DNA of 39,028 nt from Massalongia carnosa (Eukaryota), in the NCBI GenBank assembly GCA_965645245.1, contig OZ287068.1, positions 3,596,001 to 3,635,028 of the forward strand. The letters run 5' to 3'. The position numbers were made by a program, and so were the translations under genes. This document shows, one piece after another, positions 3,978 to 39,028 of this stretch. The notes beneath the pieces were generated by a model. It ran no database searches. It had not been told where the DNA came from and saw only the letters and a list, made by a program, of their open reading frames with translations. Each line of letters starts with the position of its first letter. The stretch's first letter is position 1.

Positions 3978-3982
3978 CCAAG

Positions 3983-5984: not shown

Positions 5985-6058
5985 TCCGTGCCACTCAGAT
6001 CGCTCGGGTCGCCTCGCTTAGTGCTAGCCAGCCATACAACCCAACTCAGCCATACAAC
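5985..6058. repeat. Left TIR of the Fot1-like element
   Basis: Reverse complement of 19888-19961 with about 3 mismatches. Contains a repeated CCATACAAC motif. Confidence 0.93.
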
Positions 6059-6069
6059 CCAAAATGCTA

Positions 6070-11339: not shown

Positions 11340-11379
11340 TTCGAGTCGATTTTCAGACTGTTTTTCCTATTGGCTGACC

Positions 11380-11391
11380 GGGCTCATAACC
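11380..11391 (-). promoter_or_regulatory. Copia primer-binding site
   Basis: GGTTATGAGCCC directly after the 5' LTR, the copia-type PBS for an initiator-Met tRNA fragment. Confidence 0.85.
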
Positions 11392-11806
11392 TGTTGCGGA
11401 GGCTACGGATTATAGGGGTGGAAGTAGGAAACAACAGCAAAAAGTACGTGCGATGATCAAGCTGATCCAATGGCAGGCTACTAATGATTGATTGAAAATG
11501 ACTGAGGCTATCTATGGGGGCATATAGCCCATTATATACCGCTGCCTGCCTTGAGCACGATTCTCCCACTTTCTATATGATCGGTCAGTCAATGCTGATA
11601 TGTAAGCTCGTCTTTGTCGGAGTTCCAAAGCTGACATATTTGCCTCATTATCAATCCACTGTAGAATGTTCGAATGTCTCCTAGAATATCAGACGCGGGA
11701 TGTTGATGATAAATCCCAAGGTGGCCAATCCAAATACTTCCAATAGCTAGTGCGCATTGGGGTTAGTGCCATTTTCTATAAGCAGACATCTCGGCTATCC
11801 TCAACA
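11392..11806 (-). repeat. 5' LTR of Copia K
   Basis: TGTTG...CAACA termini, followed by the PBS on the minus strand. Confidence 0.95.
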
Positions 11807-12823
11807 TTTTGCATAGACTGCAATATCTCGTATGCACTCTACTTCATACTCTTGCATGTTATCGTCTTCGAATTCAAGCTGTTCAGCTATTTGTTCGTCT
11901 ACTACCTCCCTTCTGGTGGTCTCTCTTTCCAGCAGAGACACATGAAAGACTGGGTGTATTTTCCAACTTTTCGGAAGTTCTAGCTGGTAAGCTTGAGTGC
12001 CTATAGGCCTCAACACCTTAAAGGGACCCAAGAACTTATGCTCAAGCTTCTTGTTCCTTTTTGTCTTAATATGTTTGCTGTTTACCCAAACCATATCATC
12101 GGGAGCGTAGCAACGTTCTTTCACCGTTCTATTGTGATATTTGGCTTGATTGTCTTGGGCTAATTGCAGGTTATTTTTCAACTCTGCTAACAAATCGCGC
12201 AGATTTTTAGCCGGTTCCTCAGCTGTCTTCGACTTCGATCGAGGGTCTTGGTTATCTTCATAACTCATCCATGGGTGGTAGCCTATATTAGCCTCGAACG
12301 GGGTGAGCTTGGTGCTTGAATTACGGGTGTTATTGTATGCAAATTCAGCGGTAGGGAGCCATTGCACACAGTCATCTTGCTCGAAACGGCAGTAAGACCT
12401 AAGGTAAGCTTCCATGGTACTATTTTGACGTTCTGTCTGACCGTCTGTTTGTGGATGGAAGGCTGTGCTTAGCCTACGCTTTATCTTCATGTAATAGCAT
12501 AGGGATGACCAGAGGTTTGATGTAAATAGCGAGCCCCGATCGGTGACTATGGAGTCAGGTAGGCCGTGATACTTGAACACGCAGTGCCTTAGCACTTCAG
12601 CTAACTGTTCAGCAGTCAGCGTTTTCTTCACTGCCTCATAGTGCACCATCTTGGTGAGCCTATCAATGACGACTAGGATGGAGTCATAATCAACTCCCCT
12701 CCAGTCCTTACTCTTAGGTAAGCCAGTGACGAAGTCCATCGTAATGTCCTTCCACTTATGAGTTGGTATAGGCAACGACTGCAAGTTTCCATAAGGCTTA
12801 TGCCTCGTAGCTTTGCTACTCAT
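11801..12823 (-). pseudogene. Gypsy B integrase core, GPF/Y module and chromodomain start
   Basis: ITMDFVTGLP, IVTDRGSLF, FHPQTDGQTERQN, FLGPFKV and IHPVFHVSLL. Confidence 0.93.
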
Positions 12824-12842
12824 GCAGACGTCGCAACCCTCT

Positions 12843-13872
12843 TGTAATGGGCTACGAGACCAGTAAGCTTATCACGAGCGACACTGATCTCGAAAGGGGA
12901 AATGCTCAGCGTGAGAGGAGGAAGATAGCTACTACGTGCTAGTCTCCGAGAGTATATGTGATCCAAAGAACTAATTGATGTGGAAGTGCTTAGACCAAGA
13001 GATCTCGTCCGAGACCCAAACGTAGGTTGTTCATAGAATAAAGACTAATTGCTAACGAATACTACAAGATTCGTTCTGATATTTATCCTACTCACCCCAA
13101 GCCTATAGCCTTGGGAGCCTTGGAACCTTAGGAGCCTTGCAAGCCTTGGGAGTCTTGCGAGCATTACAGCCTTGCAATCCACATCCGACTTTATCGCATT
13201 ACATCCAACCATCCCTCAGGATCCATCCACGAACTCGGCGTTCGCTGGATCATCTAGTCAGCCTCGAGCAGCCTTTTAGATCTTCCCTTGCAAGGTAGAA
13301 CAATTCTACCCCCGGCTAGATCCCTCACTACATGCCTCAGGCTATGTAGCTTCATTTCGCCGTCACCACTACCTAGTGATGGAAGGTTACCTCCGACTGA
13401 ATACCTCGCTACACTGCGGACCTGCCTCTAGACACAAGGTCTAGACAACGAGGTCATGTAGGTTCATTCAGCCGACATCACTACCAACGTAGTAATAAAG
13501 GTTGAAGCTGAAGTTTACACCGGGGAGCCTAGCTCAAGCTGCGTCCAGCGAGCCGTGCCTCCTGCTACCTCTCTTGAACCATCAAGAGATCCAGTAGCTC
13601 CGAGTAGGCCAGTAGATCCCATATAGAGTTCCTTGGCGTCTCCACAGGAGTCCGCCTTACACTCCATGGCAATCTACCACCACGGCCTCGACAGGTGTTT
13701 GATCTGTAAGTAGTCAAGAACGTGATAACAATAACTCCGAAGTTTCGGGGCAAGATGGCAGTGTGTCAGCCTCGACGGCTTATGCGACTTCGTACTACGG
13801 CATGGTCCACACTAGTTAATCCCGCAACCGCCATAGGCGATCACGTATCCCTCTAGCGCCATCCGTATTACA
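12843..13872. mobile_element. Solo LTR, 1030 bp (family M, copy 2), inserted in the Gypsy B integrase zinc finger
   Basis: TGTAAT...ATTACA termini and TSD CCTCT (12838-12842, 13873-13877). Confidence 0.95.
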
Positions 13873-15633
13873 CCTCTACATAGCGTGCTATGTCTGACTT
13901 CATCGATGGCCAGTAGTACTTTCTACTCACTAGCTCAATCGTCTTATCTTTCCCGAAGTGCTCTGCCAGCGGATCATCATGATTTAACTCAAGAATTTCT
14001 CCTCGTAAGGAGGCTGGGATGTAGGCCTTTCCTTCATAGAATAGACAGTGGTCCGAGTCCGACCATGGCTCGCTGGAGGGCGACACCTCCTGTGTCCCCG
14101 ACACGTCACTGTCTTTCAAGGTAGCTAACCTTTTCCGAACAGTGATAGCGACCTCGTCAACCTGTTGCAACTCAGGAAGACGCCCTAATACTCCCCTAGA
14201 AGCGGGTTGAGTATAAGGTGGCTCGCGCTGTGCGAGAGAGTTTCGCAATGAACTTCAGTATGCCTTCACCTTCGGAACAACCAATGTTCCACATGTTATG
14301 ATCTTCCATATTTCACCGTGGTGAGACCCCGTCGGGCCAGAAGCATCATCTAACGACTCCCCTGACATTGCCCTCATTAGACAAACGCGTGCGTTCTTAT
14401 CTGCTAGGGATGTCTGCAAAAGGTGGAGCGTTTTGCGGTTTTCAACCAGCACTTCGCCATCATCATCGCCAGCGGTAGGAGGTCTTGACAGCCCATCGGC
14501 TGGGTTCCTCTTACCCTGACGATAATCGATGCGGAAATTATACCTGGAAAGCTCTTGAGCCCACCTTACTTGCCTGCCGCTTAGGCGCTTGGTATCCCTA
14601 AACCTCGTAAGGTTATTGTGATCAGTCAACACGAGAATTTCGTGAGACGACCCCTCAAGGTAATGTCTCCAAATTTTGAAGGCCTCGACTATCGCTAATA
14701 GTTCAGCATCATGGGTCTCGTAATTACGCTCAGCCGGTAGCATCTTGCGTGAGTAATAGGCAACAGGGTGCCATTGTCCCTCGTCATCTTGCTGAGCCAA
14801 TATGCCGCCAATAGCATAACCTGACGCATCGGTTTCCACGCGTACTGGTTTACTAGAATCGTAATGCCTTAGTACCGGGGCCTCTATGAACGACTTTTTC
14901 AGCTTCTCAAAAGCCTCTAGTGCTTCCTCCGTAAGGAACTCGCTTTCGACACCCTTAGGTGATTTCTGTCTATGATTAGCGGGCTTTGTTTTCAGCATAG
15001 CGGTAAGTGGCCCTGCTATTTTACTGAACCCACGAATGAATCGTCTATAGAAATTCGCGAAGCCTATGAACACCTGTACATCGCGTACGCATGTGGGCCG
15101 TGGCCAATTTTGCACTGCTTGGATGCGATCTTTTCGCATAAAAACACCCTTAGGATTGATGACATAGCCTAGGAATTCGACTTCGTCGGTGCTGAATCGG
15201 CATTTTTGTAAGTTGCAAAATAAGCCATGCTTGCGGAGTTGTTCTAACACCCATCGCACAGCATCTTTATGGGCCTTACCATTCTGTTCGGTATAGATCA
15301 GTATATCATCCAAATAAACGATGCAGAAGACATCCAGTTTTAGTGCCAACGCTTTATTGATATAGGCTTGGAAGGAGGCCGGAGCATTGGATAATCCGAA
15401 TGGCATCACGTAGTATTCGAAATGGCCATATCGGGTGCGAAAGGCTGTCTTCCATTCGTCGCCTTTCTTAATTCTGATGCGATTATAGGCTGCAGTCAAA
15501 TCCAATTGGGTGTACTGTTTGGCCCGTCCTAGTCGATCTAAAGACTCGCCTACTAATGGTAGCGGGTAGCGATTTTTAACTGTCAGATTGTTCAGACCCC
15601 TATAATCCTACGCAGAGCCTCAGGGTACCATTT
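13873..15633 (-). pseudogene. Gypsy B RT, RNase H and integrase N-terminus (ORFs 14255-15505 and 13868-14248)
   Basis: [33 protein letters not shown] and HDDPLAEHFG. Confidence 0.93.
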
Positions 15634-22293: not shown

Positions 22294-23565
22294 CTATCTG
22301 ACTTTGTCGAGGAAGGACAACCGCCTCCGTCTCGACATGCCACGTTGGTCGTTCTTCCAGATGCCATTCAGGCGCTCCTTCTCCTCTTTTCGGACGGGGC
22401 AGAGGTGAGACCACGCCGGATGATTCCCGCCATACACGGCGCACTTGCGTCGATCCGCAGGCGCTTTGCATGCTTGAGAGCGATGTCCTTGAGCGCAGCC
22501 TGCGCCTCGAAGGGCGTTCTTACATGCGTTGCCCGTATGTCCGTACTTCTGGCAGTGAAAGCACTGTTTTAGACGAGAGTTCTTATCGAAGTACTCACAT
22601 ATTCTATGCGAGTAATCCTGCAGAAGACCCTCTTTAATCAGTCTGTTTGCCGTCTCTGCGGTGGCTACTTCAACTATTAGCGAGGAGTGAATCTTGGCTT
22701 CCGAAACTACCCTTATGGTCCATGCAATGCGGCAGATCTGCAGTCCCGGATGAAGCTGCTCATTCTGTTTCTCTAGACTCTTGATGGTAGCTTGTGCGTT
22801 AACTGTGTCAACGCTGTCTACGCGCACCCCATGCGTTAACACAGCAAATGTGCGTCGTACTACATACGCTGAGTCCGCAAGCCCTTTATGTAGCTGTTGA
22901 TCCATCTCCATTCTCGCCTTAGCTTCTATCGTGCACGCCAGCAGCTCTAAGTCGCCGCTTGGGAGACGTCGCACCGCCAGTCCATCGCCGGTCTTCTTCT
23001 CGATAGTCTTGATTCTGTCCATAAGTGCCTTGTTCGACAAGGATTTGATTTCGACTTTCTCTGCGTCGTTCCTGAACTTGATCAGAACGGACTTTCTTCT
23101 CTTTATCTCCTCCAGCTGTCGTTGCTGCTCCATTACGGAGTTGCGCGTCACCGTCGTGATGCTGTCGTTTCTGCTACTTCCCGCGGACGCTACCGCGGCG
23201 TAGCTCTTGACTGCTGCCGTCGTCTTGGTCGTGTTCGCTTCTATACGCGTTAATTGCTGTTGAATCAGCTGCATATCATTGCGTAGCTTGCTCTCCGGAA
23301 GCGCGAGAAAGTGAATCAACTCCTTTGCTTCTTGTAGCAGTGTCAAGATCTCTGATCCCTTAATTATCTCTCTGGATTTTTCGCGTAGCTGTTTTTCAAT
23401 GTCAGCTATGGCGCGTACTGCTCGGCTCGTAAGTTTTGCACTGCTTTTCTTCTCTTGTAGCGCCCGTGCAGCGATGTCGCCACGCCGCCTACTCGGCGTC
23501 GACATAACGTCGGTACGCGTTACAAGGGAAGACGTGTTGAGAGAATGGATAGATGTGAGAGTCAA
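22294..23565 (-). pseudogene. LINE ORF1 (gag-like nucleic-acid-binding protein), frameshifted near the C-terminus
   Basis: Coiled-coil N-terminus, FAVLTHGV and three knuckles (CFHCQKYGHTGNAC; xAGCAQGHRSQAC; CAVYGGNHPAWSHLC). Confidence 0.88.
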
Positions 23566-23613
23566 ATCAATAATAGTAGCCTAGATTGTAGTTGTCGATT
23601 GTTATCGCGATGA

Positions 23614-23801
23614 TGTTGAAATAGGTATATGACTATGGCTATATAAACAAGGTAAGGAGGTAAGGAACGGATATAAAAGAAGGGGTCGAGTCTCGAAAGT
23701 TCTGGCTCCTTGTCCGACGTCTTGAATAGCTAATCTAGCCTAGCTGTAGCTATAGACTCAGTCAATTAGAAAGCTTGACCATCCAATCCAGGCCCCTGAC
23801 A
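23614..23801. mobile_element. Composite LTR remnant
   Basis: The first ~30 bp match the start of LTR C (7028). The remainder is an inverted relative of 24517-24680 and ends CCTGACA. Confidence 0.7.
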
Positions 23802-24516
23802 TTCAGGCATTCCTTTTAGATATCGAGAAGCTCGATCAGGCAGGAACCGTAGTCGGTTCGGTGACGGAGGTTACAAATGAAATCCCTTCCAAATATTCAG
23901 ATTTCCATGACTTCTTTTCGAAAGATAATGCACAGAAGTTGCCTGAACATGGACCTCAGGATCATGCTATCGATACGGAAGGAAAACAGCCTCCATTCGG
24001 CCCAATATAAAATTTATCCTTGACCGAGTTACAAATATTACGGGAGTACCTCGACGAATATTTGGCCAAAGGATTTATAGTTCCTAGCACTTCATAAGCC
24101 GGTGCTCCTATTTTATTCGTCAAGAAAAAGGATGGCGGTCTGAGACTATGTGTTGATTATCGGGGACTGAACGCTATTACGATCAAAAATCGATATCCTT
24201 TACCCTTGATCATGAACCTGTTAAATGTTCTTGTTGGCGCCGTCTACTTCACTAAACTCGATATCCGGGATGCATATCATAAAATCCGGGTACGGGCCGG
24301 TGACGAATGGAAAACGGCTTTTCGATGCAGGTACGGTAAAATTGAATACTGGGTTATGCCTTTCGGACTAGTCAACGCACCTGCGTCATTCCAGGCCTAC
24401 ATAAACGAAACCCTACGGGAATGTTTAGACGACTTTGTAGTGGTGTACTTGGACGACATTTTGGTATTCTCCAAATCGATGAAAGATCATACATTTCATG
24501 TCCGACTAGTCCTGGA
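23802..24516 (+). pseudogene. Gypsy D pol fragment (RT N-terminal half)
   Basis: [29 protein letters not shown] and YLDD. Cut by LTRs on both sides. Confidence 0.9.
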
Positions 24517-25003
24517 TGTCACGAAATCAGGTCGAGGGCAAGGGCAAAGGCAAGGTGGGTTGATGGTCAAGCTTATTGATTGAGTCTATAGCTATGAATC
24601 TAGGCTAGGCTAGGTTGGCTATTCAAGACGTTCGACAAAGAATCAGAACTTCCATGATTCGACTTCTTTCTTATATCTTTGTCCTCCCATATTCATCTTT
24701 CTAGGGTGGCGGCGAATGATGTCTAGTCAGTGCGATGATGAATGAGGGGCATTATAGCGGCAATAAGCACGATGGGGTCAGCGAGGAGACGGGAGATGTC
24801 AAACATCAATGCGAAGCTATTAGACATGATAATAGTCGAAAGACGGGAATAAATCATCAATGCGAGGCTGATTAATGATCAGTAATCGGCGAATTCGAAG
24901 AATGATATGAGGTTACCGAAGGCATGGCACGACGTCCGTGAGTAGTCATCAGATCAAGGCACGTGATAGAGGCACGTGGTGAGGTCGGAGGCATTTCATG
25001 ACA
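24517..25003 (-). repeat. 3' LTR of Gypsy E (487 bp)
   Basis: TGTCA...TGACA termini with an adjacent PPT. Confidence 0.87.
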
Positions 25004-25046
25004 GTAGCTCCCCCTTCAAGGCAGAGCTCCTGCGATGCCATCTTAT

Positions 25047-26348
25047 CTATGCCTCGTGGCATTGGCAACGGGGAATTTGAGAGGGGTTTAGATGAGGGCC
25101 GGCCGCATTGGGATAGGCTTGGTGGTATTCGTCTATGACTTGCTGACAATTGATGAGATAGTTGAAAGGCTCCCAGGTGGAAGGATGCCCTTCCCAAACC
25201 ACTAGGTATTTCAGAAGCGGGGGTTGAAAACGTCGGTCGAGCTTGGAATTCAATACCCTATTGACATACCATTCTCGTTGGCCATCTTCGGCAATGACGG
25301 GGTCTCTAGGCTCCGGTCTCTGCCCGGGGAGGGGGTCATTGGCATCATGCTGCAACAGATTGACGTGAAAGACGGGATGGATTTTGACGGTATCGGGAAG
25401 CTCCAGCTGTACGATCAAGGGGTTGGAAAACACCTTGCTGACGCGGTAGGGGCCGATATTTCGGTCATCCAGCTTGACTGTGGGGCGAGCGGTTTGGATA
25501 TTTCTGGTGCTTAGCCACACCATATCGCCAACGAAATAGCGGGGGCAGGGACGTCGGTTAGCATTTGCAGTTGCTTCGTACGAAGCTTGGGCCATCAGCA
25601 TTTCGTCTCGAAGATGAGTGTCGATATCCTGCATCTTATTCACGAACTGGTTGGCTGCAACTAGGTTTGCTCTGCCCTGAGCAGTTAGGTCTTGCGGCAG
25701 GGGTTCCTCCGGTTCAAATCCCATGCGGGGATGTTGCCCGAAGTTGGCTAGGAAGGGGGAGGCCAGGATACTAGATGAATCGGTGTTATTGCTGGCGAAT
25801 TCGGCGCCAGGAAGCCATTGTGCCCAGTCATCCTGCATGTAGTTGACATAAGCCCTTAGGTAGTGCTCCATGGTGGCGTTGGCTCGCTCGGTCTGCCCGT
25901 CGGTCTCCGGGTGGTATCCGGTGGATAGCTTGGCGTCGATTTTCAGCCTCTTGCACATGAGCTGCCAGAAATCGGAGACGAATTGGGGGCCACGATCAGA
26001 AACCATGGCTTCAGGAAGCTTATGTAGTTTCCAGACATTCTGATAGAACGCATCGGCGGCGTCTTCAACTTCCATGGACGTGATAGGAATGAAATGTCGC
26101 ATCTTGGACAGGCGATCTATAACCACCAAGATGTAGCGATAAGTGATTCCCATGAAGGTGCTGGGGGTCAGGGGGCCTACATAATCCATGGAAATATCCC
26201 GCCATCTGCGCTCGGGGGGGGGGAGTGGGCGTAGCCAGCCCTGATAGCGCTGGCGGGATGGTTTTGATCTTCTGCAAGTGTGGCAGTTTCGGATAAATCG
26301 CTTGATGGACTGATGCATGCTGGGCCACCAGTAGGATCGATTTACCAA
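25047..26348 (-). pseudogene. Gypsy E integrase with chromodomain
   Basis: CHTC, ISMDYV, VSDRGPQF, YHPETDGQTERAN, IGPYRV and EWYVNRVL...YLVVWEGHPSTWEP. Confidence 0.93.
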
Positions 26349-26402
26349 CTCATGGCATTTCGAACGGCCCAGATGTCCGCCGGCGACGCTATCGTGAGCG
26401 AG

Positions 26403-28736
26403 TTAAATGATACGAAGCCTCAGACGATCGGATCGAGGTACGTATTTCTTGTTTCGAAAATACAAGATACCGTCCCTATCTTCGCATTCGGCTAATTGGA
26501 TTCGATTGTGATGCCTCTCGTTATTACGAAGGGCTTCCAGGACTTCGGGGGCGAATTGGTCTCGTGTTAGGGCTTGTTCCCAGAGGAGCTCCGCGGAGAT
26601 ATCCTCATCGGGATCGATGAGGTCCTCATCTAGCTGAGGTTCTGCTTCTTCGATATCTGCATCATCTAGGAAAGCTGGTGCCAGAAGAATGGATCGCAAA
26701 TAACTTTTTGCGACTTCCTCATCCAGGTTTTCGGTTTTCAAAATGGTTTGGTGTTGAAATTTCCTTCGCTCGTCCGTATCATCCCCTTCTTTAGGAAGAT
26801 CTCCCGATCGACGAGTTAGAGCGTCCGGTTTTCCTCCGGCTTTTCCTGGTCGATAGACTATCTTGAAGTCAAATCGAGAGAGAAATTCGCTCCAGCTAGC
26901 TTGGCGACGGCTGAGCTGCTTGGTGGAGGCAAAATACTCCAGGTTTTTGTGGTCGGATATGACGCTGATGGGGAAGGCAGATCCTTCTAGTTCGGGTCAC
27001 CATTCTTCAAAACATCGAACGATTGCCATCAGTTCTTTGTCATAGATCTCGTAGTTGCACTCGGCGGGATTGTGCTTCTTTGAGAAGTAGGCGACGGGGT
27101 GAAGTATCCCATCATCGTCGTATTGAGAAAGAATGCCCCCCGAAACATAGTCGGAGGCATCGGTTTCGACGATGATGGGACGATCGGGGTCGAAATGCCT
27201 GAGAATGACATCGGAGGTGAAAGCTTTTTTCAGCATTTCGAATGCCAATTGGCATTTGTCAGTCCACAGGAATTCCGTCTCCTTCTTGGTCAGGTTGGTT
27301 AGGGGGCCAGCTATGTCGCTAAACCCATACACGAATCGTCTATAAAAGTTAGCAAAACCCAGAAAGCTTTGCACATCTTTCACATTGACGAGGTTTGGCC
27401 AATTGACGACGGTTTCCACCTTGGCCGGGTCCATTTTTATCCCTTCGGTGGTCACGATTATCCCTAGGTATGCAATTTCGGTGACATGGAACTTGTACTT
27501 GGTGATGTCGGCTTGCAGGCCTGCATCTCGGAGTCGAGACAGGATTTTTTTGACGTGGACCTCGTGCTCCAGCTCATTGTCACTGTAGATGAGGATATCA
27601 TCTAGGTACGCAGTGCAAAAGTCAGCAAGATACTCGTGAAGCGTATCGTTGATGAAGTGCTGAAATGAGGCGGGCCCGTTGCATAGGCCGAAGGGTAGGA
27701 CCAAGGACTTGAAAAGGCCGAAACGAGTGCGAAAAGCGGTGAGTTCTTCGTCTCCTTCTCGTATGCGGAGCATATTGAAGGCGGCGATGATGTCTATCTT
27801 GGTGAATATCTTGGCTTTGATTAATTGGTGCAGGGTCTCGGCGATCAAGGGCAGCGGATAGCGATCCTTAATCGTGATGGCATTCAGAGCACGATAATCC
27901 ACGCAAAATCGAAGTCCCCCACCTGGCTTTTTCACGAACATCACCGGGGAGGCGGCGTGGGAGCGACTAGCCCGAATAAATCCCTTGGCTAGATTTTCGT
28001 CGAGGTAGCGGCGGAGCTCCTCGATTTCGGTACGACTCATACCATACAGGGCCTGACTAGGGGCCTGCGTACCTTCTTTCAGGTTTATGGCATGATCGTA
28101 GGGACGGCGGGGGGGCAAGTCTTCGGATTTCTTCTTCGAGAAGACATCTAGGAATTCGTGGTATTGCTTGGGCAGAAGGGGGGCTGGGTCGACGTTCTTA
28201 CTTTCTCGGTAAGCGTCTAACTCTTCACGAGTCACGGCGGTGGCTAGGGTTAGGGCCTTATTCATCTTAAATAAGGCTAGGTGGATTTCTTTCTCGTGCG
28301 GGCTTGCTCGAGATGGCAATGGTTGGTAGGCTGGGCTGGGTTTTTTGGCTTTTTCGATCAAATCGGGGGCTGAACTAGGTGAGGCTTTCATTACTAGAGG
28401 TTCGGGGTTGGTTTTTCCTAGAAAGAGGTCAATTTCTTTCATGGACAGGGCGAAACTATCGTGGTTTTTCTTCCGAGTCAGTCGATTGAAGGAGATAGCT
28501 CCGATTTCGCAGACATTCATCTGCGGGGTGGTTTTGCGTGCTGCTTGATGAGCACGTCTTTGGGTGGATGTCCGCAATTTGGACGGGCTTCGGTATCGGA
28601 TTTTCGGGGGGGGAAGCCCTTCCTGGATTGCATTTTCAATGCGACTGGGTTCATCGGTGGGGTTTTGAAGCTGGGGTTCGGGTTCATTGATTTCGGGTTT
28701 GATTAAGGTGAAATCGCGCGGCGCGGTTTTGAACAA
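26403..28736 (-). pseudogene. Gypsy E RT, RNase H and tether (ORFs 26997-28736 and 26403-26741)
   Basis: [25 protein letters not shown] and [11 protein letters not shown]. Confidence 0.94.
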
Positions 28737-28976
28737 AGGGATGGATTCCTCGATTTTGACGGGATTGTCAGGAATGGAATTTTTGATTGTGGGAATTTCT
28801 TCCCCCTCTTCTAGAGAAGTTATCGACGTTCAGATAGACGTGTCTTGATTGATAACTTTTCCTAGGGCGTCTTCGAGGATCTCTTCATCCCAGATTTTTC
28901 GACTCTCGGCTGGGGTGAGGAATTCTTCCTCAACGGCTTGAAGCTTGACGGGGTGGGGGCAACAGTGAGTGAGGCA

Positions 28977-29510
28977 CTAGGGGGAGGCAAAGGTGAGCGT
29001 ATTATGCCCAAAATCGGCTATGGCGTTATGCCGGCGGAGCCATGGATGGCCCAGGATAATGGGATAATTTTTTAACCCGGTGACATATAGAAAGAGTTTT
29101 TCTACATGACCTTCTAGATCCATGGTGATTTCGGCCACATGAGTGATATTGCCGGATAGAGCCCTTTGGCCGTCGAATCCTTCGAGCCGGCGGGGATATT
29201 TGAGAAGATGAAGGGGAATTTGGTTAGTATGCGCAAATTTCTCATCGATGAATGAAAAGCCAGATGCACCACAATCAATTAGATTATACGTTCTAATCCT
29301 AGATCTAGATAATCGCAAGATACCTGTCATCACCATGTGACTGTCTCTGAACGTCTTATCTGATTCAAACAGCTCCAAAGCGGAGGCTGCGGAAATTCGC
29401 GTATTGGATCTCAAAGAGGGGGAAAAACAGGCCATCAAACATGAGGAAATGAGAAGGGGGGGAGTCCCTGCACGCGACGATGTGCAGAGACTAGGCTTTT
29501 CCCTGATCAT
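28977..29510 (-). pseudogene. Gypsy E aspartic protease
   Basis: LIDCGASGFSFID and IILGHPWLRRHN. Confidence 0.9.
29463..29503 (-). promoter_or_regulatory. Putative -1 frameshift signal of Gypsy E
   Basis: Heptamer G GGA AAA (29503-29497) at the gag end QGKA*, then an 11-bp stem with one G-U pair (29492-29482 with 29473-29463). Confidence 0.75.
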
Positions 29511-29678
29511 GATGTCGGAATCCGGGGTGAAGGTTAGAACACAAGTGGAGGATTATTTCGGCGCAATCAATCGGCAAGGACTTCAACCGTCATTCTCATT
29601 CAGTCGTTAACCATTGTACGCATTGTTGGTTGCGTTGTGATGATTCAAAGAGGAGATGTCATGTCTGCTGGAGCACAG

Positions 29679-29909
29679 TACCGCGCTAACCGAATTCGGG
29701 TTTTTTCCTGTATTTCTCATGTTAATCCAAATCCTAACTACGAGAAGTGATCGATCATGCGATGATGTGAATAATGTGATCATGCGATGAGTAACTTAGA
29801 CCTGTCATTGATTTTACATTCTTAGCTGCCGTTCTGGTGGATTTTATTGATGTTTTCTCGTGTCACCTACCGCACTAACCGAAATAGGGTTTTTTCCTAA
29901 ATTCCTCAT
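29679..29909. repeat. Two 42-bp imperfect direct repeats (29679-29720, 29868-29909) enclosing two 13-bp repeats (29753-29765, 29778-29790)
   Basis: TACCGCRCTAACCGAA...GGGTTTTTTCCT...CTCAT occurs twice and GATCATGCGATGA occurs twice. Confidence 0.85.
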
Positions 29910-29949
29910 CTCTAGGACTTCGACTGCTTAGCGTCACTCTTCCCCGATC

Positions 29950-32900
29950 ATGCCTTCTACGGAGACATTGAAAAAATTATGTGGTAGGCCTCGAAAGTAC
30001 TCTACTGCTGATGAAGCTGCAGCGGCCAAGAGACGGCAGAATCGAGGCTATTACCACAATCCATCGCGCCCAGTTGGTCTTGCAGGTCCCGCCGACTTTG
30101 TTGCCTACGAGCCTCTACCTACATCCGATATTCCTAGCTACACCCTGCGTGCCATTGGTCTGCGAACCAGCCCAGACATACCAACCCCCCCGGATCGCGA
30201 TATAGTAGAAGACTGTGAGGAAGAGCTTGAACCCGAAGCATACCTAACCCAGGATAACCCCCTCGAACTGCAACTCCAAATACCCTACACGAGGAGCCCG
30301 AAATCATTCGACAAGTTGAGAAAATATGCACAGAGGAGGTGACAAATATTGAAGACGCAGACTATGATGTGGAGGTCACGGCACGCTTGGAGGAGTCGGC
30401 AGCCCATCTCGAGGCAGCAGAAGTGCTCCAGGCACTACGAATTGGGCAACAAGAGAGGTAGGAGAGCAGCAAGACCGGGTCACTGTATTCGGACTACGCC
30501 GCCCAGCAGTTTAGTGATGTCGAATCATCAGCACCTAGACACAACAGCACACCAATTCATAGTCCACCGAAAACAGATATACATCAGGGCAGTTCACCGC
30601 ATACTGCAGATACACAACGCAGTCACAGCAGGACTTCCAAGGCTCAGTCAAGTAGCACCAGTCAGTAGTAGACGTGGGACTTCGTTTCCAACGTAGAGAA
30701 ACACGCTATTATCATGGATGAAGCCTTTGACAGGTGTCGATTCTAACCCTACTTCGCCCACTTCACGCCCATCTCCAAGCATTGCTATATCTACACCTAC
30801 GCCCTCAGATCTTCATCAACCTGCTGGATCCGTCGAAGCACCACCACCCGTGCCTTCAAGAGAACCCCCCCTAGGCCAAAGTCCACAACCAGCAGTACAG
30901 CAGGCACCGCGTAGCGCGCAGAGTGCCCACATCGCAAATCCGAGCCCTGGTAAACTAGAGAGCACATCCTCTAAGCTGGCCAAGTAGCTACGTAAATTCC
31001 GGTGCTGCACTCATGAGCAGCATACCGAAGCCGATCGCCAGCATGAAGAACACCACCGACGCCGAGGTGTGCACTCAGAGTGCTCATCCATACCTGATAT
31101 TACTTCCATTGTTAAAGGGTTACACAATGGGGGCACTCCGCTTCCCGATGTCCTCAAAAGTCCCCGACTGATGAGAGCAACCGATATCCAGGGTGTCGGC
31201 TACAAGGCGGCATTCGAAGGCACTCCTAGTGCTCGCCTGGACGAAGCCACTCCCCATAATGATGGACTACCTCCGAGTCTTTGCCTGTCCAAGAAACACG
31301 TTACAAGTCGGAAGAATCGTCAATCAAGGGTCAGTTTTGACATCGACAGCACCTGTTGTTTCCCCCAGAGTCTCGGGTTTGCCCGTCGTGGGATAGAGTG
31401 GTTCCCCAAGGCCCATCCCGTCCTCAATCTCACGGGCGACATACACTTTGGGTTGAAGGTCCCTGGTTCCACGATCAAGGACAATCCATCCCTAAGATAT
31501 ATCCCGCTGCATAAGATATCCCACTACTGCTTTGGGCGCTTGGTTGGCATGAGCGATCTTCTCATGTGTATCTACTTTCCCGCCCTGCACAAAGAAAGCG
31601 ATCATGAGCATACCTCGTATCTCAGTAAGCGCGACGAGCAGCTCTGGTTGGATGGCATCCTCCTTCCCTGTATCACCAAGGTTGTTAAGTCTTCCAACAT
31701 ACTGCTGAACTATCCGGCTTCTTCTCGCATAGCCGACCTTGCATACACGGCGATATCTGCAGAGAGCCTCAAACGGAAGGAGTCTGCCAACCAGCAGTTA
31801 GTTGCCCATACGATCCAGCCGCGGTACCTCGATGAGCTCTGGACCTTGGTTGGTAGGACCATAGATGAGAATCCTGGGTTTCATCGGTTCCAAGGCGCAA
31901 CACTGTTCACGCATTCCAAGAACACCAAGCTGGCAACTAATGACTCTACTGGTTTGGTCGAAGCATACAATGGCTGGAAGAGGCAGTGGCTGGATGCAGC
32001 AGATCCGGAATTCTACAACCCAGATCGCACCTTTGTGGACATTGCAAAGCAGATCACCTCACAGGACAGCGCGCTTCCTTATGATCAGAAACCAGAGAAC
32101 CACGAAGCCGAGGTGTTCCTGTGGAAGAAGTGCTGCCTAGATGAGTATTGCAGGACGAGGATGGTCCTCAACCCGGATGGAAGCAAGGCTAAAGGGAACC
32201 CGAAGCGTACTGTATACTCCTGGGCTACCATGCGAGATACGATGAGCCAGACGCTGTTTGCTGCACCGCAGGGGGACGAGACCAAGGACGGGCTAATATA
32301 TTCTCAGTTCTATATGCTCGCCAAGACTCTATTCGGCTCTTCGAAAGTGTACGTCTTTACTAACGACTCGGTGGAGAACCTAGACCTGGACCCTGGATAT
32401 GTGCGTTCTCTGCAACAGGAGGGCGGAGGTATCACGTTCTCTAGGGGTGTGTGCGAGTTTGCCTATCTCCACAGCAAGAAGCGGGCTCATGCAAACCTCA
32501 TGGACAGTCGCTGGAAGTCTTATGGAGTGAGGGAAGAACATCGGATATCACTAAGCATGATGGAGGAGATATATGAACAGTGGAACCAGTGGACCTCTAC
32601 GACGCAGACGACATAGCAGACACCCCGTCTCCACTGGCATATTACATTGTACCTACAATCGACTTTGTATGCCTCCTCCACGCCCAGATCAATAAATACT
32701 GCTTCCTGTTCGAGCATGTTCTTGCCCACACAGCTAAGACGTACTCCCTGCCTGATGATGAATAGTAAAATTCACGTGTAGGTATAATAGCATGATTGTC
32801 ATTGAAGGTATGAATTATATGTCAGCTATCTACTGCATTATATAGCAGTAACATTGGAGACCTTTCGGCGACCCTTTTAATAATGAGTCAGCCGGTCTAC

Positions 32901-33717
32901 TGAATCTCGGTCCCCGGAGGTCACCTCGGTCCCCGTCGTAGAGTCGCCGAAGATAAGCACTTGATGAATGCCCATGATGGTAGTCCTTACCATCTGACAT
33001 CTGAGACGATCATCATGGTTGTTGCGCTGCGGGGACTCCGCTTCTGCTACGGTGGAAATATGCTGGCGCGAGAGTTCCTACTGTATAAGGACCGGTGGAG
33101 GGTTGTACGAGGAGGGAAGACCATCGTCAAGGAAGGACTCGGGATGAAGGAGAGTATAGAGCTATCCGGGTTAGGGTGGTTCAAGCCTAAGATCAACTGG
33201 GAGACGTGGCAACTAGCAGCACCACATGGTGAGAACATCCTGGTTGGGAACATGCTTATGCACGAGGAGTATAAGCGGAGGTGGAGAGCAGTAAAGGATC
33301 TCCGCGACGTCTTCATTCGTTTCAACCAAGCGGCGTCATGGTATGAGAGGTACAATGTGCAGGAGAACCCTCGATTGCTGAAGTCCTGGCTGGAGTACCT
33401 TCACGTTCTTAACCTCGAGCAGTTTGACGCAGATATCTGGAAGGCCATGCACAATATCAACAAGCAGACTAAGGAGCTAAGACGCGAGGGTGCAAAGCCG
33501 CCTGCAGAGTTTAGGTTCTGCTGCTACCGCGACATGAAGAGGATGTTCCCCGTCGACGCAGTTACTGGACAGCCAGGTTCACCGCACATGGTCACCGGGA
33601 ACAAGATACGGTTCGCCAAGGCTATAGGTCTCCTCAACTTCCTATTCCTATCCGATGAGGAAGAGCGGCGTGGCTGGGGTAACAAGCCGTACCGCGTGAT
33701 CCTGAACAAGACGTTCG
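29950..33717 (+). pseudogene. Large (>1100 aa) decayed gene of unknown function, probably mobile-element encoded; core ORF 31069-32616
   Basis: Collinear ORFs 29950-30342, 30718-30987, 31069-32616, 32580-32765 and 32961-33746 join across stops, frameshifts and one LTR (KTYSLPE|TIIMVV). N-terminal GRPRKY is AT-hook-like. Confidence 0.7.
32756..32999. mobile_element. Solo LTR, 244 bp
   Basis: TG...CA termini and TSD CCTGA/TCTGA (32751-32755, 33000-33004). Confidence 0.85.
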
Positions 33718-33950
33718 TGTTAAATGGTGAGGCTACCATCGGTTAGATAGTTAGGCTACCATCAATATAGGCATCCATCGTGAGTCCCACGGGTGCCTGC
33801 CAGGCATCTATAAGAGGTGCCTAACAGGCAGCTATGGAGGTGCCTAACAGGCAGCTATGGGTGGCCTACAGCATTACTGTTATGTGACTGCTATAAAAGC
33901 AGGTAGACAGCCCACATAGATAATTACCTTCAATGACAATCATGCTATTA
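33718..33950. mobile_element. LTR fragment (inverted relative of 32756-32999) cut by the Helitron
   Basis: Starts TGTT. 33926-33950 is the reverse complement of TAATAGCATGATTGTCATTGAAGGT in the 32756 LTR. Contains an internal tandem GAGGTGCCTAACAGGCAGCTATGG. Confidence 0.75.
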
Positions 33951-33961
33951 CGAGACCGTGC

Positions 33962-33979
33962 AATCTCAGAACTGAGATT
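33962..33979 (-). other. Helitron 3' subterminal hairpin
   Basis: AATCTCAG-AA-CTGAGATT, a perfect 8-bp stem 11 nt from the terminus. Confidence 0.85.
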
Positions 33980-34251
33980 TTGGAACCGGTTTCAAGTTTT
34001 TACGATCGATACAATTCGTAAAAGGTTGTAAATTTAAAACCATGTATGCAATACAAATTTATCTATTTAATTTCAGGATTGAAATCGAAAAATTGAAAAC
34101 TTTTCTTAAATTTTCTAAAACTTACGACTTGCGAAATTAGCGGAGAATGTCACACTTGATGACCCGGACGTTAAATTTTTGATAACACAATAAACTTGCT
34201 GTCTATTTTGCAATTGAATACATTTTCTAAGTGACATGATACCCTATATCA

Positions 34252-35968
34252 TCATAAACTTACAGCAGGATTCGGAGGAACATGAGTTATCATGTCATGT
34301 TGCGATCGCAGAATTACTTTCGGATATACAATGTTATCCGTTTTCCAGTCATTTCGTTCCGGAAACAACATACACAATCGAGACACATCCATAACTCGAG
34401 ATAATGCCACATATAACTGACCATGAGTAAAAGGAAGAGCTCGCAAATCGACTCCTATCGTGTCCAATGATTAACCTTGCGACTTGTTGACAGTCATAGC
34501 AAAGCACAATCGTATCGGAAATTGTTTGCGACTTATGATCCAGGGCAACTCGCCTTCCGTGGTATTAAGAAGAATCCGGGGAATTAATCGCGTTTCACCG
34601 TTGAATTCTTATCCCAAAATCTTTCCCTCTAGACAGGTCCGCGAAATGTGAGTAAGACGTAATCGGGTGCCGTTACAGAGACCAAGTTTGGGATACAAAT
34701 TCCGCAAAAAAATGATTCGGGCTCCAAGTTTCAGTTGCAATTGTGAAGTTTGTATAGACGATGTTTGCAAGGGTTGTAAAAACTCGGGAGGAAGAAAGTC
34801 TCCTCGTTCCTGCGCCGTATCGTTCTCTATTTGATCAACGGAGTTCAAGGTGTGCGAACCGCCCTGCAATTTATTCAGTACTGCACCGTTTAACTCCGCG
34901 ACGATATCGTTCCGCAAAGTCAAAATTGCTCGACTTGCGAAAGAATCCGCATCCAGATAAGCTTGCCGCATGCGATCGGAAGGAAAAACGGTGTCCACGA
35001 AACTGTCTAAGTTGTTCAGTTGATTGACTTGTTCCGGTAGCTGAACACGACCGGAAAAAGCAGGATCATAAGGCATTTTCCCGATCCTATCCGCAAACGC
35101 CTCATTGGCGACTTCGTTACGAATTCGCATGATTTGACGCAAAAACAGTTTTTGAAATCGCGGCCACAGAAGGTGTTTTGAATGTTCGCCGCAACGATGG
35201 GTTCCCGATTTCCACGGGGAACAACGGGCAAGATTTGAGCGAAATCTCCGCCTCACACCATCGGAATAACTCCGAAAGGTCGTCAGTACCTAAAAGGTCC
35301 GTAAAAGTGCGATGTACGGCCATGAAGCATTGTTGGTGTTGCATCGGCACCTCATCCCCAATGATTAAGGCTGTGCGTTGCAAAAGACAGTGTAAATGCG
35401 TGTTGCGGGTGATATTACACATGCTGTCCTCATTTAAAATCAAAGGAATTTTCAACCGGGAATGTGAAGTCTGTCCGCTAGGAAGAAGTAAAGCCGCAAT
35501 ACCGGGAGACGCAACGCAAAGAATGATTTTTTTCTCCGCCCGAATATCATTGCAAAGAGTCTAATATAAGAAAGTCTTACCTGTTCCTGCAGGTCCGTGA
35601 ACAAAAAAATGCGCCATTCTAGGATAATCTCTAACTCCCGCAACAATGGTATCAAAACAGTATTTCTGATCCGCATTCAATTGAGTATATCGTTCATTTC
35701 GTAACGTCGTTTCTTCGTTGAAATCGTAAGTCATTTCTGTAACGGTTCGACCATGCGTGGTGCGGACGGCAGGACCTACAGCGAACAAAGCAGGAGTCCC
35801 AGTTATAGTAGAATAGAGCTTGGTCTGCGGACTAAGTATTGTGCCTTTTGGTCGGGAGGACAGGTGGCGCAATGGTAGAAATCTATTTACTTCTCGCTTC
35901 GTCACAATTTCATTTGCGATCAACGGATTTCCAGTACTCCGACCCCAATCGTATGTAAACAGCGGCAT
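34252..35968 (-). pseudogene. Helitron Pif1-family helicase domain (frameshifted)
   Basis: Walker A GPAGTGKT, IIGDEVPMQH, GLCNGTRL, QFPIRLCFAMTVNKSQG and FTHGQLYVALSRV. Confidence 0.92.
35738..35906. mobile_element. Solo LTR, 169 bp, within the Helitron
   Basis: TGT...ACA termini and TSD ATTTC (35733-35737, 35907-35911). Confidence 0.88.
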
Positions 35969-36149
35969 ATTCTAATCCTCTAATCGTTTTCCTAAATCCG
36001 AAAGACCTCCGTTTAACAAATAAAGGCCGTAATCTAAATGCGGACTCATTAAATCGTCAGGAACATCAGTCATTGATCGTAATCGATGCGGTAAATCGTT
36101 ATATATATCATTTGCGTATCGATTCTATAAGGCCGTAGGATCCGTAACA

Positions 36150-37082
36150 CGACGATCATCGGTTGTGGCCGCATTCTCCCGCAAAGCCTCGCTGGCGGAT
36201 TTGTAAAGCTTGATAAAGGGATTCATATTGTGCAACATCTCTGTTAAACGTCGTACAATATCGGGATCCAATTCTGTATGTTGTCGAGTACGAATCGCGG
36301 TTGCTTCGTCGGGATCGTAAAAAACTGTTGAGCAAAGCGAGGAGAATCGTCAACGGGATCCAAAGGACCTTGCAGGTGATACAGTTCTCCGTGATTTTGA
36401 AAACATACCGGTCCACGACCGTTGCGAGGAAGTCGGCGATCGGTTTTGTAGTTTACGGAGGTGAACGTCAACGTGGAATTATATTTTCGGAGGTTTTTGC
36501 GAAATGTGCGGGTTCTAATATCGTCACCAATTAACAGTTGCCGTAATTAATCAGGAGGAGGCTGAAACGGTGGCAACACGACACCACCTCGCTTGCAACA
36601 GGATTTGTATACTCGATCTCGTCTTCTGTCACTCTGAACAGCTTCCGTTCCCAATGCCACGCACCGCAGTTTCTGCAATGATATGTCATGTGTTGAATTC
36701 GTTGTATCGCGGATTCTAAAGTGTACTGACTTTTAAATGCGGCAGGAAAGTTACGATTTGCAGCCGTATGGTCACGGGCTTCAACAGCACGGTCGCGACG
36801 ACGTGTTCGACGATTTTCTCGTGACTCACGATGATTAACAGGTGGAGAAACAGGTCTGGAACTCGCAATGGATGGAGAAATATGTCCGAAACTCGACCTT
36901 ACGAAACCGCGAGCTCGGTTGTGATTGTACTGACCCGCTTCTGCTTCGTTGAGCAGCATTTCTTCCCAAATGTTCGGATTTTCCAACTGCAAATCATTTC
37001 GATTTGGCTGGCTTGCCGAATGGAAAGCCGACGATACGGGAGAAACGGAATTCGTTATTGAACTGTTAGGCGAACTCTGCAA
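36150..37082 (-). pseudogene. Helitron RepHel N-terminus (zinc-finger region)
   Basis: CRNCGAWHW...SCC, YNSTLTFTS, HGELYHLQGPL, PRFAQ and NPFIKLYK, spread over several frames. Confidence 0.82.
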
Positions 37083-37557
37083 AGAAGGAAGAGTGACAGG
37101 AGATACAATCGAACTTCTTAGAGCAGGCGGACGCAGGAAAAGACTAACAGAACGTTTTCGGTGGTCGTAAGATTAGACGAACGCGTTTTGCGGGAGGATT
37201 TTCCGGAGAATTCACTTTATTATGCGGTCTACGGAGAAAATACCATTGTCGTAACGGAATGGGAAGTCGAGAAACGATTGCTCGAGGAGAAGAGCTAGGC
37301 TGCAAAGATATAGCGGTAGTCGTTGCTGTTGTTGCGAAGAGATCAGATAATTGTTAATGCTAAACCCAATTAAGACTACGTTAAACCGAATCGAGGGATT
37401 TCGCAGGTTCATTGAACGGACGGATTTAGCGCAGTTTTCGGGAACATCAAAACATGAAAAACGCGAACAACGACCACCTCTCGCGGCCCACAACGAACGT
37501 AAAAGAACGTAGTTTTCGCGATACGGACTGATATCAACAGGATCAGTTGATCTCCGA

Positions 37558-37700
37558 GGTTAGGGTTAGGGTTAGGGTTAGGGTTAGGGTTAGGGTTAGG
37601 GTTAGGGTTAGGGTTAGGGTTAGGGTTAGGGTTAGGGTTAGGGTTAGGGTTAGGGTTAGGGTTAGGGTTAGGGTTAGGGTTAGGGTTAGGGTTAGGGTTA
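37558..37700 (+). repeat. Telomeric repeat tract GG(TTAGGG)23TTA
   Basis: Perfect hexamer array with the G-rich strand pointing outward, as at a right chromosome end. Confidence 0.97.
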
Positions 37701-38706: not shown

Positions 38707-39028
38707 TTAGACACCGTACGGGCGCGTTCGGTTGGGCTCGTGCCAAGCGAAGGCGTCTTCAAGACGCTCGCATTCGACGCCGGTAGCGAGCAGATAAACG
38801 GAGACAACGTCGAAGCGAGTGCGAACGCTGTCGCGCAGGTGTTCGTCGAAGCCCCTGAGATAGGCGCGGCCGAGCTTGCGAAGCTGTTCGCGCTTGTCGC
38901 GGTCAACGGAGACCTCGGCAGCCATGGCATCGCGAGCGGTGCGGGTCTTGACCTCGACGAAGCAGAGGACGTTCGCTTGCCAGGCGATGAGGTCGAGATC
39001 GCCTCGAACGCGCACGGAGGACCAACGG
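38707..39028 (-). CDS. yraN: YraN / UPF0102 family PD-(D/E)XK endonuclease-like protein, 5' end outside the window
   Basis: RGDLDLIAW...LCFVEVKTR...RFDVVSV family signature. Confidence 0.88.
   Translation of the reverse strand, partial: RWSSVRVRGDLDLIAWQANVLCFVEVKTRTARDAMAAEVSVDRDKREQLRKLGRAYLRGFDEHLRDSVRTRFDVVSVYLLATGVECERLEDAFAWHEPNRTRPYGV

Follow-up and report, generated by a model that had tools for sequence, protein, structure and literature searches.

The 39,028-nucleotide stretch of Massalongia carnosa DNA analyzed here (contig OZ287068.1, positions 3,596,001 to 3,635,028; hereafter the window) carries, at 29509-33717, what is probably a dead copy, shortened at its distal side, of a fungal Y′/TLH-type subtelomeric element that exists in multiple copies and appears to be added onto chromosome ends. 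This estimate, drawn from sequence comparison, covers the element-level reading and excludes the chemistry by which such an element might move. The family protein of ∼1,260-1,470 aa is the main, and sometimes the only, gene product of the element, and its gene occupies 29950-33717 in the window.

A broken gene within an element remnant

The preliminary description of this DNA had placed one intronless gene, now broken, at 29950-33717. The plus-strand stop-to-stop frames of this interval join into a single gene, and in a tblastn search with the best intact relative as the query (P0001, 1389 aa), residues 1-80, 98-193, 201-829, 833-876, and 877-1123 matched in order at 29968-33716, with 79% identity over a 542-aa open reading frame (ORF) and with no second fragment matching P0001 in the rest of the window. 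Since residues 1-1123 are covered collinearly and no other fragment exists, the stretch represents one gene, intronless as had been claimed, which lacks its last ∼266 codons. Every motif coordinate given in that description was exact on re-check. The element and its gene comprise the following features:

29509..33717, plus strand: subtelomeric-element remnant with a complete 5′ end, aligned to the termini of relatives (±3 nt), and with its 3′ part lost, the 3′ limit being the end of protein homology
29509..29545, plus strand: 5′-terminal box with telomere-like G-strand variant repeats (ATGATGTCGGAATCCGGGGTGAAGGTTAGAAC), matching TTGAAGCTCGAAATCGGGGTCCGGGTCAGGAC in L003/L034 as well as the termini of L012, L013, L014, and L035
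29685..29909, plus strand: two copies of a 5′-untranslated-region (5′-UTR) motif (GCTAACCGAAT.GGGTTTTTTCC), ∼183 nt apart, the motif being an inverted pair of single telomere-like units
29950..33717, plus strand: disrupted coding sequence corresponding to residues 1-1123 of a ∼1389-aa protein (frames and tblastn)
29950, plus strand: start codon ATG
29983..30000, plus strand: GRPRKY, an AT-hook-like N-terminal motif kept as GRPRK[YFH] in relatives that retain the N-terminus
30985..30987, plus strand: in-frame TAG, at a position where relatives have Q
31003..31083, plus strand: Cys/His cluster C-x4-H-x6-H-x∼12-(C/H), with CCTHEQH at 31003-31023 and HSEC at 31072-31083
31282..32583, plus strand: conserved core in the alignment, with FDIDS, DIH, KNTK, VDIAK, CC, YSQFYxxxK, and REEHR and their invariant residues
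31336-31350, plus strand: FDIDS
32032-32049, plus strand: FVDIAK
32299-32325, plus strand: YSQFYMLAK
32530-32544, plus strand: REEHR
32752..33001, plus strand: 250-bp insertion, a small high-copy repeat flanked on each side by CTGA, absent from contigs of four runs and raised in depth

The damage to the gene consists of three frameshifts (frame changes near 30257, 30659, and 32590), one stop, the 250-bp insertion, and the missing 3′ end. Contigs of related copies from four public runs, one of which carries a lichen metagenome label, have +1, -4, and +1 bases at 30257, 30659, and 32590, respectively, and skip 32752-33001, so these lesions are private to the window copy. The insertion shares 70 bp, inverted, with 33882-33950. 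Within the 5′ region, an internal repeat pairs 29679-29720 with 29868-29909, and one contig has a back-joint of 29835 to 29679. The window copy is dead and without functional consequence.

Intact relatives define a unit with one exact 5′ end

A metagenome scan yielded 80 loci. Intact metagenome relatives form units of 4.7-10 kb with a single exact 5′ end, in the order of (i) a 5′ end with telomere-like variant repeats, (ii) the big ORF, (iii) often a TLH-like ORF (OrsD zinc fingers, either alone or together with a RecQ-type helicase), and, in several lineages, (iv) a purine-rich tail. Six loci, namely L003, L004, L006, L007, L008, and L010, carry, between differing flanks, a common 10,020-bp block of 99.95-100% identity, which comprises a 1448-aa ORF, then a 610-aa ORF with OrsD (PF12013), and then ∼2.3 kb of purine-rich sequence. 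The exact left end of this block (TGAAGCTCGAAATCGGGG / TTGAAGCTCGAAATCGGGG...) recurs at eight junctions, one each in L003, L004, L006, L007, L008, and L034 and two in L010, and the sequence upstream differs each time. One flank is joined to the 5′ end at three different nucleotides (L003, L004, and L007) and a second flank at two points (L008 and L010); in L006, the 5′ end is joined to the shortened purine-rich tail of another element copy, and in L034 it sits on a further, unrelated flank. L010 also contains a complete copy, ∼five telomere repeats, and the 5′ end of the next copy, which together make a head-to-tail pair. The possible overlap at these 5′ junctions is 0-2 nt, and seven of the eight have no telomere repeat. 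The right end always reads ...GGCGAAGGG and then TTAGGG repeats, which are followed by one of three continuations: a minus-strand RVT_1 element after two repeats, the next copy after ∼five, or nothing further in a contig-terminal array. Moreover, the circularly permuted contig L035, which comes from a lineage 89% identical, carries two copies, as expected of an assembled tandem array, and the proximal copies in L006 and L035 are truncated. Copies joined in this way make up stacks at the ends of chromosomes, arranged head to tail.

The 5′ terminus (WTGAA, then G-strand telomere-variant repeats) and the 5′-UTR motif are common to lineages with ∼50-70% protein identity, the motif lying ∼100 nt upstream of the start codon in L001, the L003 group, L017-L024, L034, L035, and L038. 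Unlike a DDE cut-and-paste transposon, the 10-kb unit has no terminal inverted repeat pairing its two ends, and its right flank consists of telomere repeats rather than the continuation of the left flank that would delimit a target-site duplication. Its ends, TTGAAG... and ...GGG(TTAGGG)n, also differ from a TC/CTRR pair. Downstream of the big ORF and on the same strand lies the OrsD ORF, which in one locus is a 1490-aa ORF with OrsD, DEAD, and Helicase_C; L057 and L059 are 5.3-kb units with the big ORF alone. TLH-like sequence stands beside the gene in 21 of the 80 loci, with a full helicase in L066/L069 only and with none in the window.

The main rival of the element-level reading is that the gene belongs to a host subtelomeric family, immobile itself, with the block spreading through break-induced replication or ectopic recombination in the way proposed for Y′ and TLH; its protein would then serve telomere maintenance or something unrelated. 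TLH-like genes do adjoin the family gene, TLH arrays with interstitial telomere repeats have been attributed to recombination (bioRxiv 10.1101/2024.02.27.582403 and PMC1635262), the telomere tract and 5′ end in L010 could stem from invasion at interstitial telomere repeats, and the protein is under purifying selection. However, seven of the eight exact 5′ junctions are free of telomere repeats and have possible overlaps of at most 0-2 nt, an outcome not foreseen by homology-driven copying; moreover, the 5′ end is identical at all junctions while the flank varies, and the family is patchy and multi-copy, with many copies decayed. We therefore consider this alternative rather unlikely.

Several further features of the relatives were recorded. 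L017 has six copies of a ∼189-bp 5′-UTR unit at 5424-6884, and L008 has, at 3835-4169 and just proximal to the 5′ region, a tandem 19-bp unit with TAGGGTTA; these tandem repeats with telomere-like units are reminiscent of HAR and X-element repeats known from other fungi. Recurring ORFs without Pfam matches (clusters of 344-464 aa) lie downstream of the big gene at L040 4658-7812, L041, L044, L008 112-1428, and L018 6746-8023, and these may be extra element genes. In L003, a 999-aa RVT_1 ORF on the minus strand (10064-14294) directly follows the two telomere repeats at the 3′ end of the element, in the orientation of MoTeR/FoTeR-type telomeric retrotransposons, with its 3′ end proximal.

Association of the element with telomeres

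At least two consecutive TTAGGG units occur in 11 of the 80 loci, always downstream and on the strand of the gene. Among the 47 loci in which the DNA stops 1-10 kb downstream, six terminate in telomere arrays, and none of the 59 whose DNA starts 0.3-10 kb upstream begins in one. These six telomere-ending loci represent six lineages with differing 3′ sequences, all of which end in GGG followed by (TTAGGG)n, and in every one of these lineages the sense strand of the unit is the telomeric G-strand. In L030 (9730-9763), the 3′ end ...GAGCGGG is followed by TTAGGG; in L032 (9745-9766), the same end is followed by a 12-mer, (GGGTTCCGGTCC)n, which is possibly a variant terminal repeat.

Telomere-directed anatomy would also be expected of a passenger that is retro-mobilized in trans, with a telomeric reverse transcriptase (RT) of the MoTeR/FoTeR or endonuclease-less Penelope type copying its antisense transcript onto the 3′ ends of chromosomes; the 3′ end of such a transcript would be the complement of the 5′ end of the element. 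Read on the opposite strand, the unit does have the anatomy of a telomeric retrotransposon array (its proximal end is exact, its distal truncation varies, and telomere repeats lie distally), the minus-strand 999-aa RVT_1 ORF stands directly distal to the element in L003 after two telomere repeats, and the 5′ ends of FoTeR and MoTeR point at the terminus (PMC12857005). We nevertheless judge this origin to be quite improbable, because the supposed RNA would run antisense to both long ORFs, the element itself encodes no RT, the proximal end of the RT element (GTTCAATTCGG...) differs from that of the element, most junctions fall outside telomere repeats, which are the attachment sites of such retroelements, and a conserved, selected 1,400-aa ORF would have no role.

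The window as a probable stacked chromosome end

Taken in order, the features of the window resemble those of a stacked chromosome end whose telomere lies to the right. The features flanking the element remnant are as follows:

25047..29508, minus strand: Gypsy pol (integrase, RNase H, RT, and protease), truncated at its telomere-facing 5′ side; Pfam matches extend to ∼29291, and there is no long terminal repeat (LTR) pair
33718..33950, strand unassigned: start of another repeat, abutting the truncated gene, with loose ends before 33718 in 22 contigs of four runs and behind 33936-33950
34252..37172, minus strand: decayed PIF1-type ("Helitron-like") helicase element with PIF1 and Pif1_2B_dom matches and no nuclease domain found
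37560..37697, plus strand: (TTAGGG)23, G-strand on the strand of the gene, 3.9 kb downstream of the gene

The 5′ end of the element at ∼29509 directly adjoins a Gypsy element truncated on its telomere side. That the gene appears to truncate a Gypsy element had been proposed before, and this is borne out by the minus-strand domains; moreover, no gag was found, and 22500-34500 contains no direct repeat of at least 60 nt. With gag and the distal LTR both missing, the Gypsy element has been cut on the side toward higher coordinates. On the distal side, the left flanks of the repeat starting at 33718 vary among the 22 contigs of the four runs, and 33718-33950 is the highest depth bin outside 35493-36074.

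The sequence after (TTAGGG)23, up to 39028, has 60% GC, bacterial-type ORFs, and a UPF0102/YraN-family match at 38707-39027 (minus strand). This bacterial-looking sequence past the telomere tract indicates that the record is probably chimeric after a true chromosome end, and the DNA beyond the tract looks like that of a contaminant or symbiont. The statement in the preliminary description that every neighbor is a transposon thus holds for the Gypsy, Copia, and PIF1-type helicase elements and fails for the last ∼0.8 kb, which looks bacterial. Similarly, its picture of a mobile element was right in assigning the gene to a repeat element and missed the chromosome-end nature of the element, with (TTAGGG)23 standing 3.9 kb downstream.

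Spread, conservation, and selection of the protein family

A length-restricted search recovered 80 proteins of 950-2710 aa, mostly 1,000-1,500 aa, all of which are annotated as "hypothetical" and none of which carries a genuine Pfam domain. These include Leotiomycete members from Botrytis, Hyaloscypha, Pseudogymnoascus, and Leptodontidium, Dothideomycete members from Pyrenophora, Plenodomus, Zopfia, Macroventuria, Westerdykella, and Paraphaeosphaeria, and many from metagenome contigs of 4-12 kb. Single genomes hold several paralogues: four V8E51_ tags in H. variabilis, five H4I9x_ tags in B. cinerea, and five BU25DRAFT_ tags in M. anomochaeta. An exhaustive HMMER pass gave 697 clusters at 50% identity, of which ten distant representatives have metagenome sources only, and a core-profile search among proteins of 218-935 aa gave 73 matches, all of them family fragments and none with a Pfam domain. 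The distribution is patchy and multi-copy, with many decayed copies. The scan of viral contigs returned no family relative, and that of prokaryote genomes returned two matches, L083 and L084, which are filed in metagenome-assembled genomes of Acidobacteriaceae and Solirubrobacterales; in both, GC content and ORF pattern point to fungal contigs that were misplaced. The number of clusters, the several paralogues per genome, and the lack of a Pfam family bear out the earlier view of an unclassified, multi-copy gene of a repeat element. The family accounts for recurrent "hypothetical protein" models and repeat-library unknowns in Leotiomycete and Dothideomycete genomes.

Conservation was scored in a 53-sequence alignment that reaches ∼22% identity. 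Its invariant columns comprise D148, D150, and S151 (FDIDS), K344, Y471 and K475 (YSQFYxxxK), and R544, E546, and R548 (REEHR), and D380 (FVDIAK) is retained in 52 of the 53 sequences. Further near-invariant sites are [D/N]xH183, H209, D252, K341, K383, CC411-412, Y439, Y467, Q469, D497, Y522, K526, and R528, such that ∼25 polar residues are invariant or nearly so. H183 is present in 52 of 53 sequences, with the preceding [D/N] being D in 30 and N in 12. In the Cys/His cluster, C36 is kept in 51 sequences, H41 in 47, and H48 in 37, whereas position 61 is a Cys in 24 and a His in 20. The preliminary description had proposed the Tyr and the RxExR residues as the sites to check, and Y471, R544, E546, and R548 are invariant; homologues proved to be neither single-copy and syntenic nor devoid of these motifs, which were the findings it had named as refuting. 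The dN/dS between intact copies was 0.11-0.33 in five pairs with >700 aligned codons and 0.33-0.45 in three short pairs. Low dN/dS and conserved residues together argue for a real protein under purifying selection.

Enzyme class of the family protein

None of the four window ORFs matched a Pfam family at E≤1, and 27 diverse members contained no Pfam domain, except for UBA in one protein. When 14 members were searched at E≤10 against Pfam, PHROGs, and NCBIfam, no family appeared in more than one member. Sequence searches of PDB with full and core profiles gave low-complexity or chance matches only (E≥0.08), and the ESM Atlas gave no usable match for the whole protein or for residues 120-600. 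In agreement with the preliminary description, which could recognize no RT, DDE, tyrosine-recombinase, or HUH domain, the Pfam searches of members (27 at E≤0.01 and 14 at E≤10) found no transposase family and no RVT match. By eye, the patterns of Toprim, PD-(D/E)xK, GIY-YIG, Pol-beta-type nucleotidyltransferases, and tyrosine recombinases were rejected, as their required partner residues are unconserved.

The preliminary description had read the gene as a Rep_trans (RepC/RepD-type) rolling-circle initiator and thus as a new class of eukaryotic rolling-circle transposon. The order of an acidic strand, Tyr..Lys, and RxExR does resemble DLAFDF...RIYNK...RVEIE of RepC, the junction polarity suits a 5′-end-joining enzyme, and the best, insignificant hhalign stretch pairs SFGIREEHRI with YFGVRDSNRF. 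However, PF02486 was not matched by the four window ORFs (E≤1) or by the 27 (E≤0.01) and 14 (E≤10) members, and the family profile aligned to pT181 RepC with a probability of 0.26% as a single sequence and of 0.19% against a 12-sequence alignment that is shallow (Neff 1.3). The Tyr of RepC sits just after FGVRDSxRF (RIYNK), whereas the family has no conserved Tyr after SFGIREEHR(IS) and carries its invariant Tyr 73 residues upstream. Furthermore, the DxD-to-Tyr spacing is 323 residues in the family and ∼45 in RepC, the motif spacing differs ∼four-fold, and no circular or hairpin origin signature was found. This reading finds no support in these comparisons and is the least probable of those considered, with hardly any chance of being correct.

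A second suggestion had been a primase-like fold, and a related possibility is that a primase-polymerase or another polymerase extends the chromosome 3′ end on an element template, as a telomerase substitute, with the DxD, the His, and further acidic residues forming a metal site. The polarity would suit extension of a G-strand 3′ end, and D148-x-D150, [D/N]-x-H183 35 residues on, H209 26 residues further, and the invariant Lys, Arg, and Tyr residues would suit nucleotidyl transfer. This D/H spacing may resemble that of the motifs of archaeo-eukaryotic primases (AEPs), and primase genes of mobile elements are usually partnered by a helicase gene. Against this, the third position is a His rather than an Asp, no AEP, polymerase, or RT family was matched at E≤10, and hhalign gave 0.46% against RTs from the window and L003 and, with only the pRN1 branch compared, 0.3% (single sequence) and 0.10% (5-sequence alignment) against pRN1-type PrimPol. 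The primase-like suggestion is thereby not upheld, and polymerase action is in our estimate improbable. The antisense-RNA, polymerase, and Rep_trans readings are all less likely than spread by recombination.

Two other residue patterns were considered. D148/D150, D380, and E546 could form a DDE-type triad, going by the alignment. In a comparison with HUH two-tyrosine enzymes, Y467 (49 of 53 sequences), Y471 (53 of 53), and K475 are present with [D/N]-x-H183 upstream, with no Pfam HUH match. This YxxxY..K arrangement may resemble the two-tyrosine motif of Helitron/IS91/relaxase-type enzymes, and the [D/N]xH is a candidate only, rather than a proven HUH. The hhalign comparison with phiX174 A (single sequence) gave 0.09%. 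Because the comparison profiles were shallow, the hhalign negatives are weak.

Proposed mode of end addition

Since the sense strand is the G-strand, it is the 5′ end of the element that must join a chromosomal 3′ end. The element probably arrives by 5′-end addition onto short or eroded chromosome ends or onto breaks, without target-site duplications, after which telomerase would lengthen its GGG 3′ end. Read in this way, the window contains such a stack, made up of a distally eroded Gypsy element, then the distally truncated element, then other repeats, and then (TTAGGG)23. More tentatively, the family protein may be the element's own DNA-processing enzyme, which would nick the 5′ boundary and transfer the 5′ end to a chromosomal 3′-OH in a one-ended, relaxase- or Helitron-like peel-and-paste reaction; at a chromosome end, a single cut would suffice. 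Unwinding of the strand would fall to a TLH or host helicase, and its completion to fill-in by the host. Such joining mirrors, with opposite polarity, target-primed reverse transcription, in which MoTeR and FoTeR have their 5′ ends outward (PMC12857005). A nickase that transfers a 5′ end would yield just this outcome, and Y467-x3-Y471-x3-K475 together with the acidic and His residues would suit such an enzyme, proving nothing.

A number of observations weigh against these proposals. For the enzyme, the searches of Pfam, PHROGs, NCBIfam, and PDB sequences and of the Atlas gave no match or no usable one, and the hhalign probabilities stayed below 0.5% for each of Rep_trans, phiX174 A, pRN1 PrimPol, and RT; its putative role is therefore argued solely from residue conservation. 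The 5′ terminus has no conserved hairpin (folding z-scores of -0.3 to +2.0 at four 5′ termini). For the element, 69 of the 80 loci show no telomere repeat, the contig carrying L003 continues ∼33 kb past the locus, and the 4.66-kb group L017-L024 has no telomere repeat and ends in a hairpin and a T-run. The junction evidence comes from metagenome contigs of relatives that are ∼53% protein-identical, rather than from the species of the window, and metagenome contigs can be chimeric at repeats; in addition, L004 and L007 are alleles of one locus with a 13-nt indel at the junction, which deletion could explain. Finally, the truncation at 33717 abuts a small repeat related to the one inserted inside the gene, and the 3′ part of the window gene may have been removed by rearrangement rather than by erosion.

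Relation to known systems

Y′ elements of yeast spread by recombination or by Ty1-made cDNA, and they are not known to have a counterpart of the big ORF. They have no sequence relation to the family element. They are likewise subtelomeric, tandem with telomere tracts between, helicase-encoding, and amplified upon telomere failure, with descriptions in PMC1635262 and PMC4522978.

Among fungal TLH regions, TLH region I of M. oryzae is delimited at its "near" side by a defined boundary that carries telomere-like repeats, varies in its distal truncation, and has the TLH 3′ end toward the telomere (PMC1635262), whereas TLHcr of F. oxysporum occurs singly or arrayed, with telomere repeats on both sides, and full-length or truncated (bioRxiv 10.1101/2024.02.27.582403). 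TLHcr measures 4.3-7.3 kb, and TLH regions are reported with a tlh ORF only (PMC12857005). With these regions, our element has in common (i) telomere adjacency, (ii) a gene 3′ end facing the telomere, (iii) a proximal boundary with telomere-like repeats, (iv) distal truncation, (v) arrays with interstitial telomere repeats (L010, L006, and L035), and (vi), in some of the units, OrsD/C2H2 and RecQ-type helicase genes. It differs in that its leading or sole ORF encodes an unrelated protein of ∼1,400 aa without helicase motifs. The ends of B. cinerea Vv3 carry TLH genes (BcTLH) and a helicase-only "Helitron-like" element in almost all subtelomeres (bioRxiv 10.1101/2022.03.07.483234), and the window likewise pairs the family gene with a PIF1 helicase-only element. 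A literature search, outside supplements and with sources available in part, found no description of this protein family, nor of exact 5′ ends joined to non-telomeric sequence for TLH regions. As its anatomy matches TLH regions and no description of its protein family was found, we assign the element to the Y′/TLH-type subtelomeric elements as a variant, with a substantial chance of something categorically new once the protein fold is known.

Telomeric retroelements (MoTeR, FoTeR, HeT-A/TART, and endonuclease-less Penelope-like elements) resemble the element in being confined to chromosome ends, in their head-to-tail stacking, in which one end is exact and the other truncated, and in possible end healing. 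They differ in that they encode RT and that their 5′ ends face the terminus (PMC12857005), whereas the element has the opposite orientation and no RT. Helitrons, IS91, and relaxases, which serve as a working model only, are alike in having one exact end, no terminal inverted repeat or target-site duplication, and a helicase partner; in contrast to these, the element has no HUH match, no hairpin, and no TC...CTRR ends, and the phiX174 A comparison was insignificant. The likeness to Rep_trans (pT181 RepC) is a loose resemblance of motif order that fails all sequence tests applied in this analysis.

Implications

The origin and spread of the helicase-bearing end repeats of fungi (Y′ and TLH regions) have been disputed for decades, and a second large protein family, unmatched in the domain libraries searched, rides in the same kind of unit. 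Conceivably, though with some doubt on our part, this is a self-encoded, DNA-based telomere-end-addition element with neither RT nor a known transposase, in which a ∼1,400-aa protein of unseen catalytic fold joins an exact 5′ end to bare 3′ ends. If the protein performs the joining, it would represent end-healing machinery of a new type, and the element a previously unseen kind of mobile element, and the question of whether Y′/TLH elements are transposons would become directly testable. The element would then give bare chromosome ends a ready-made telomerase seed, as the mirror image of every known telomeric retrotransposon, and its protein would be a possible missing "transposase" behind the movement of Y′/TLH-type subtelomeric units.

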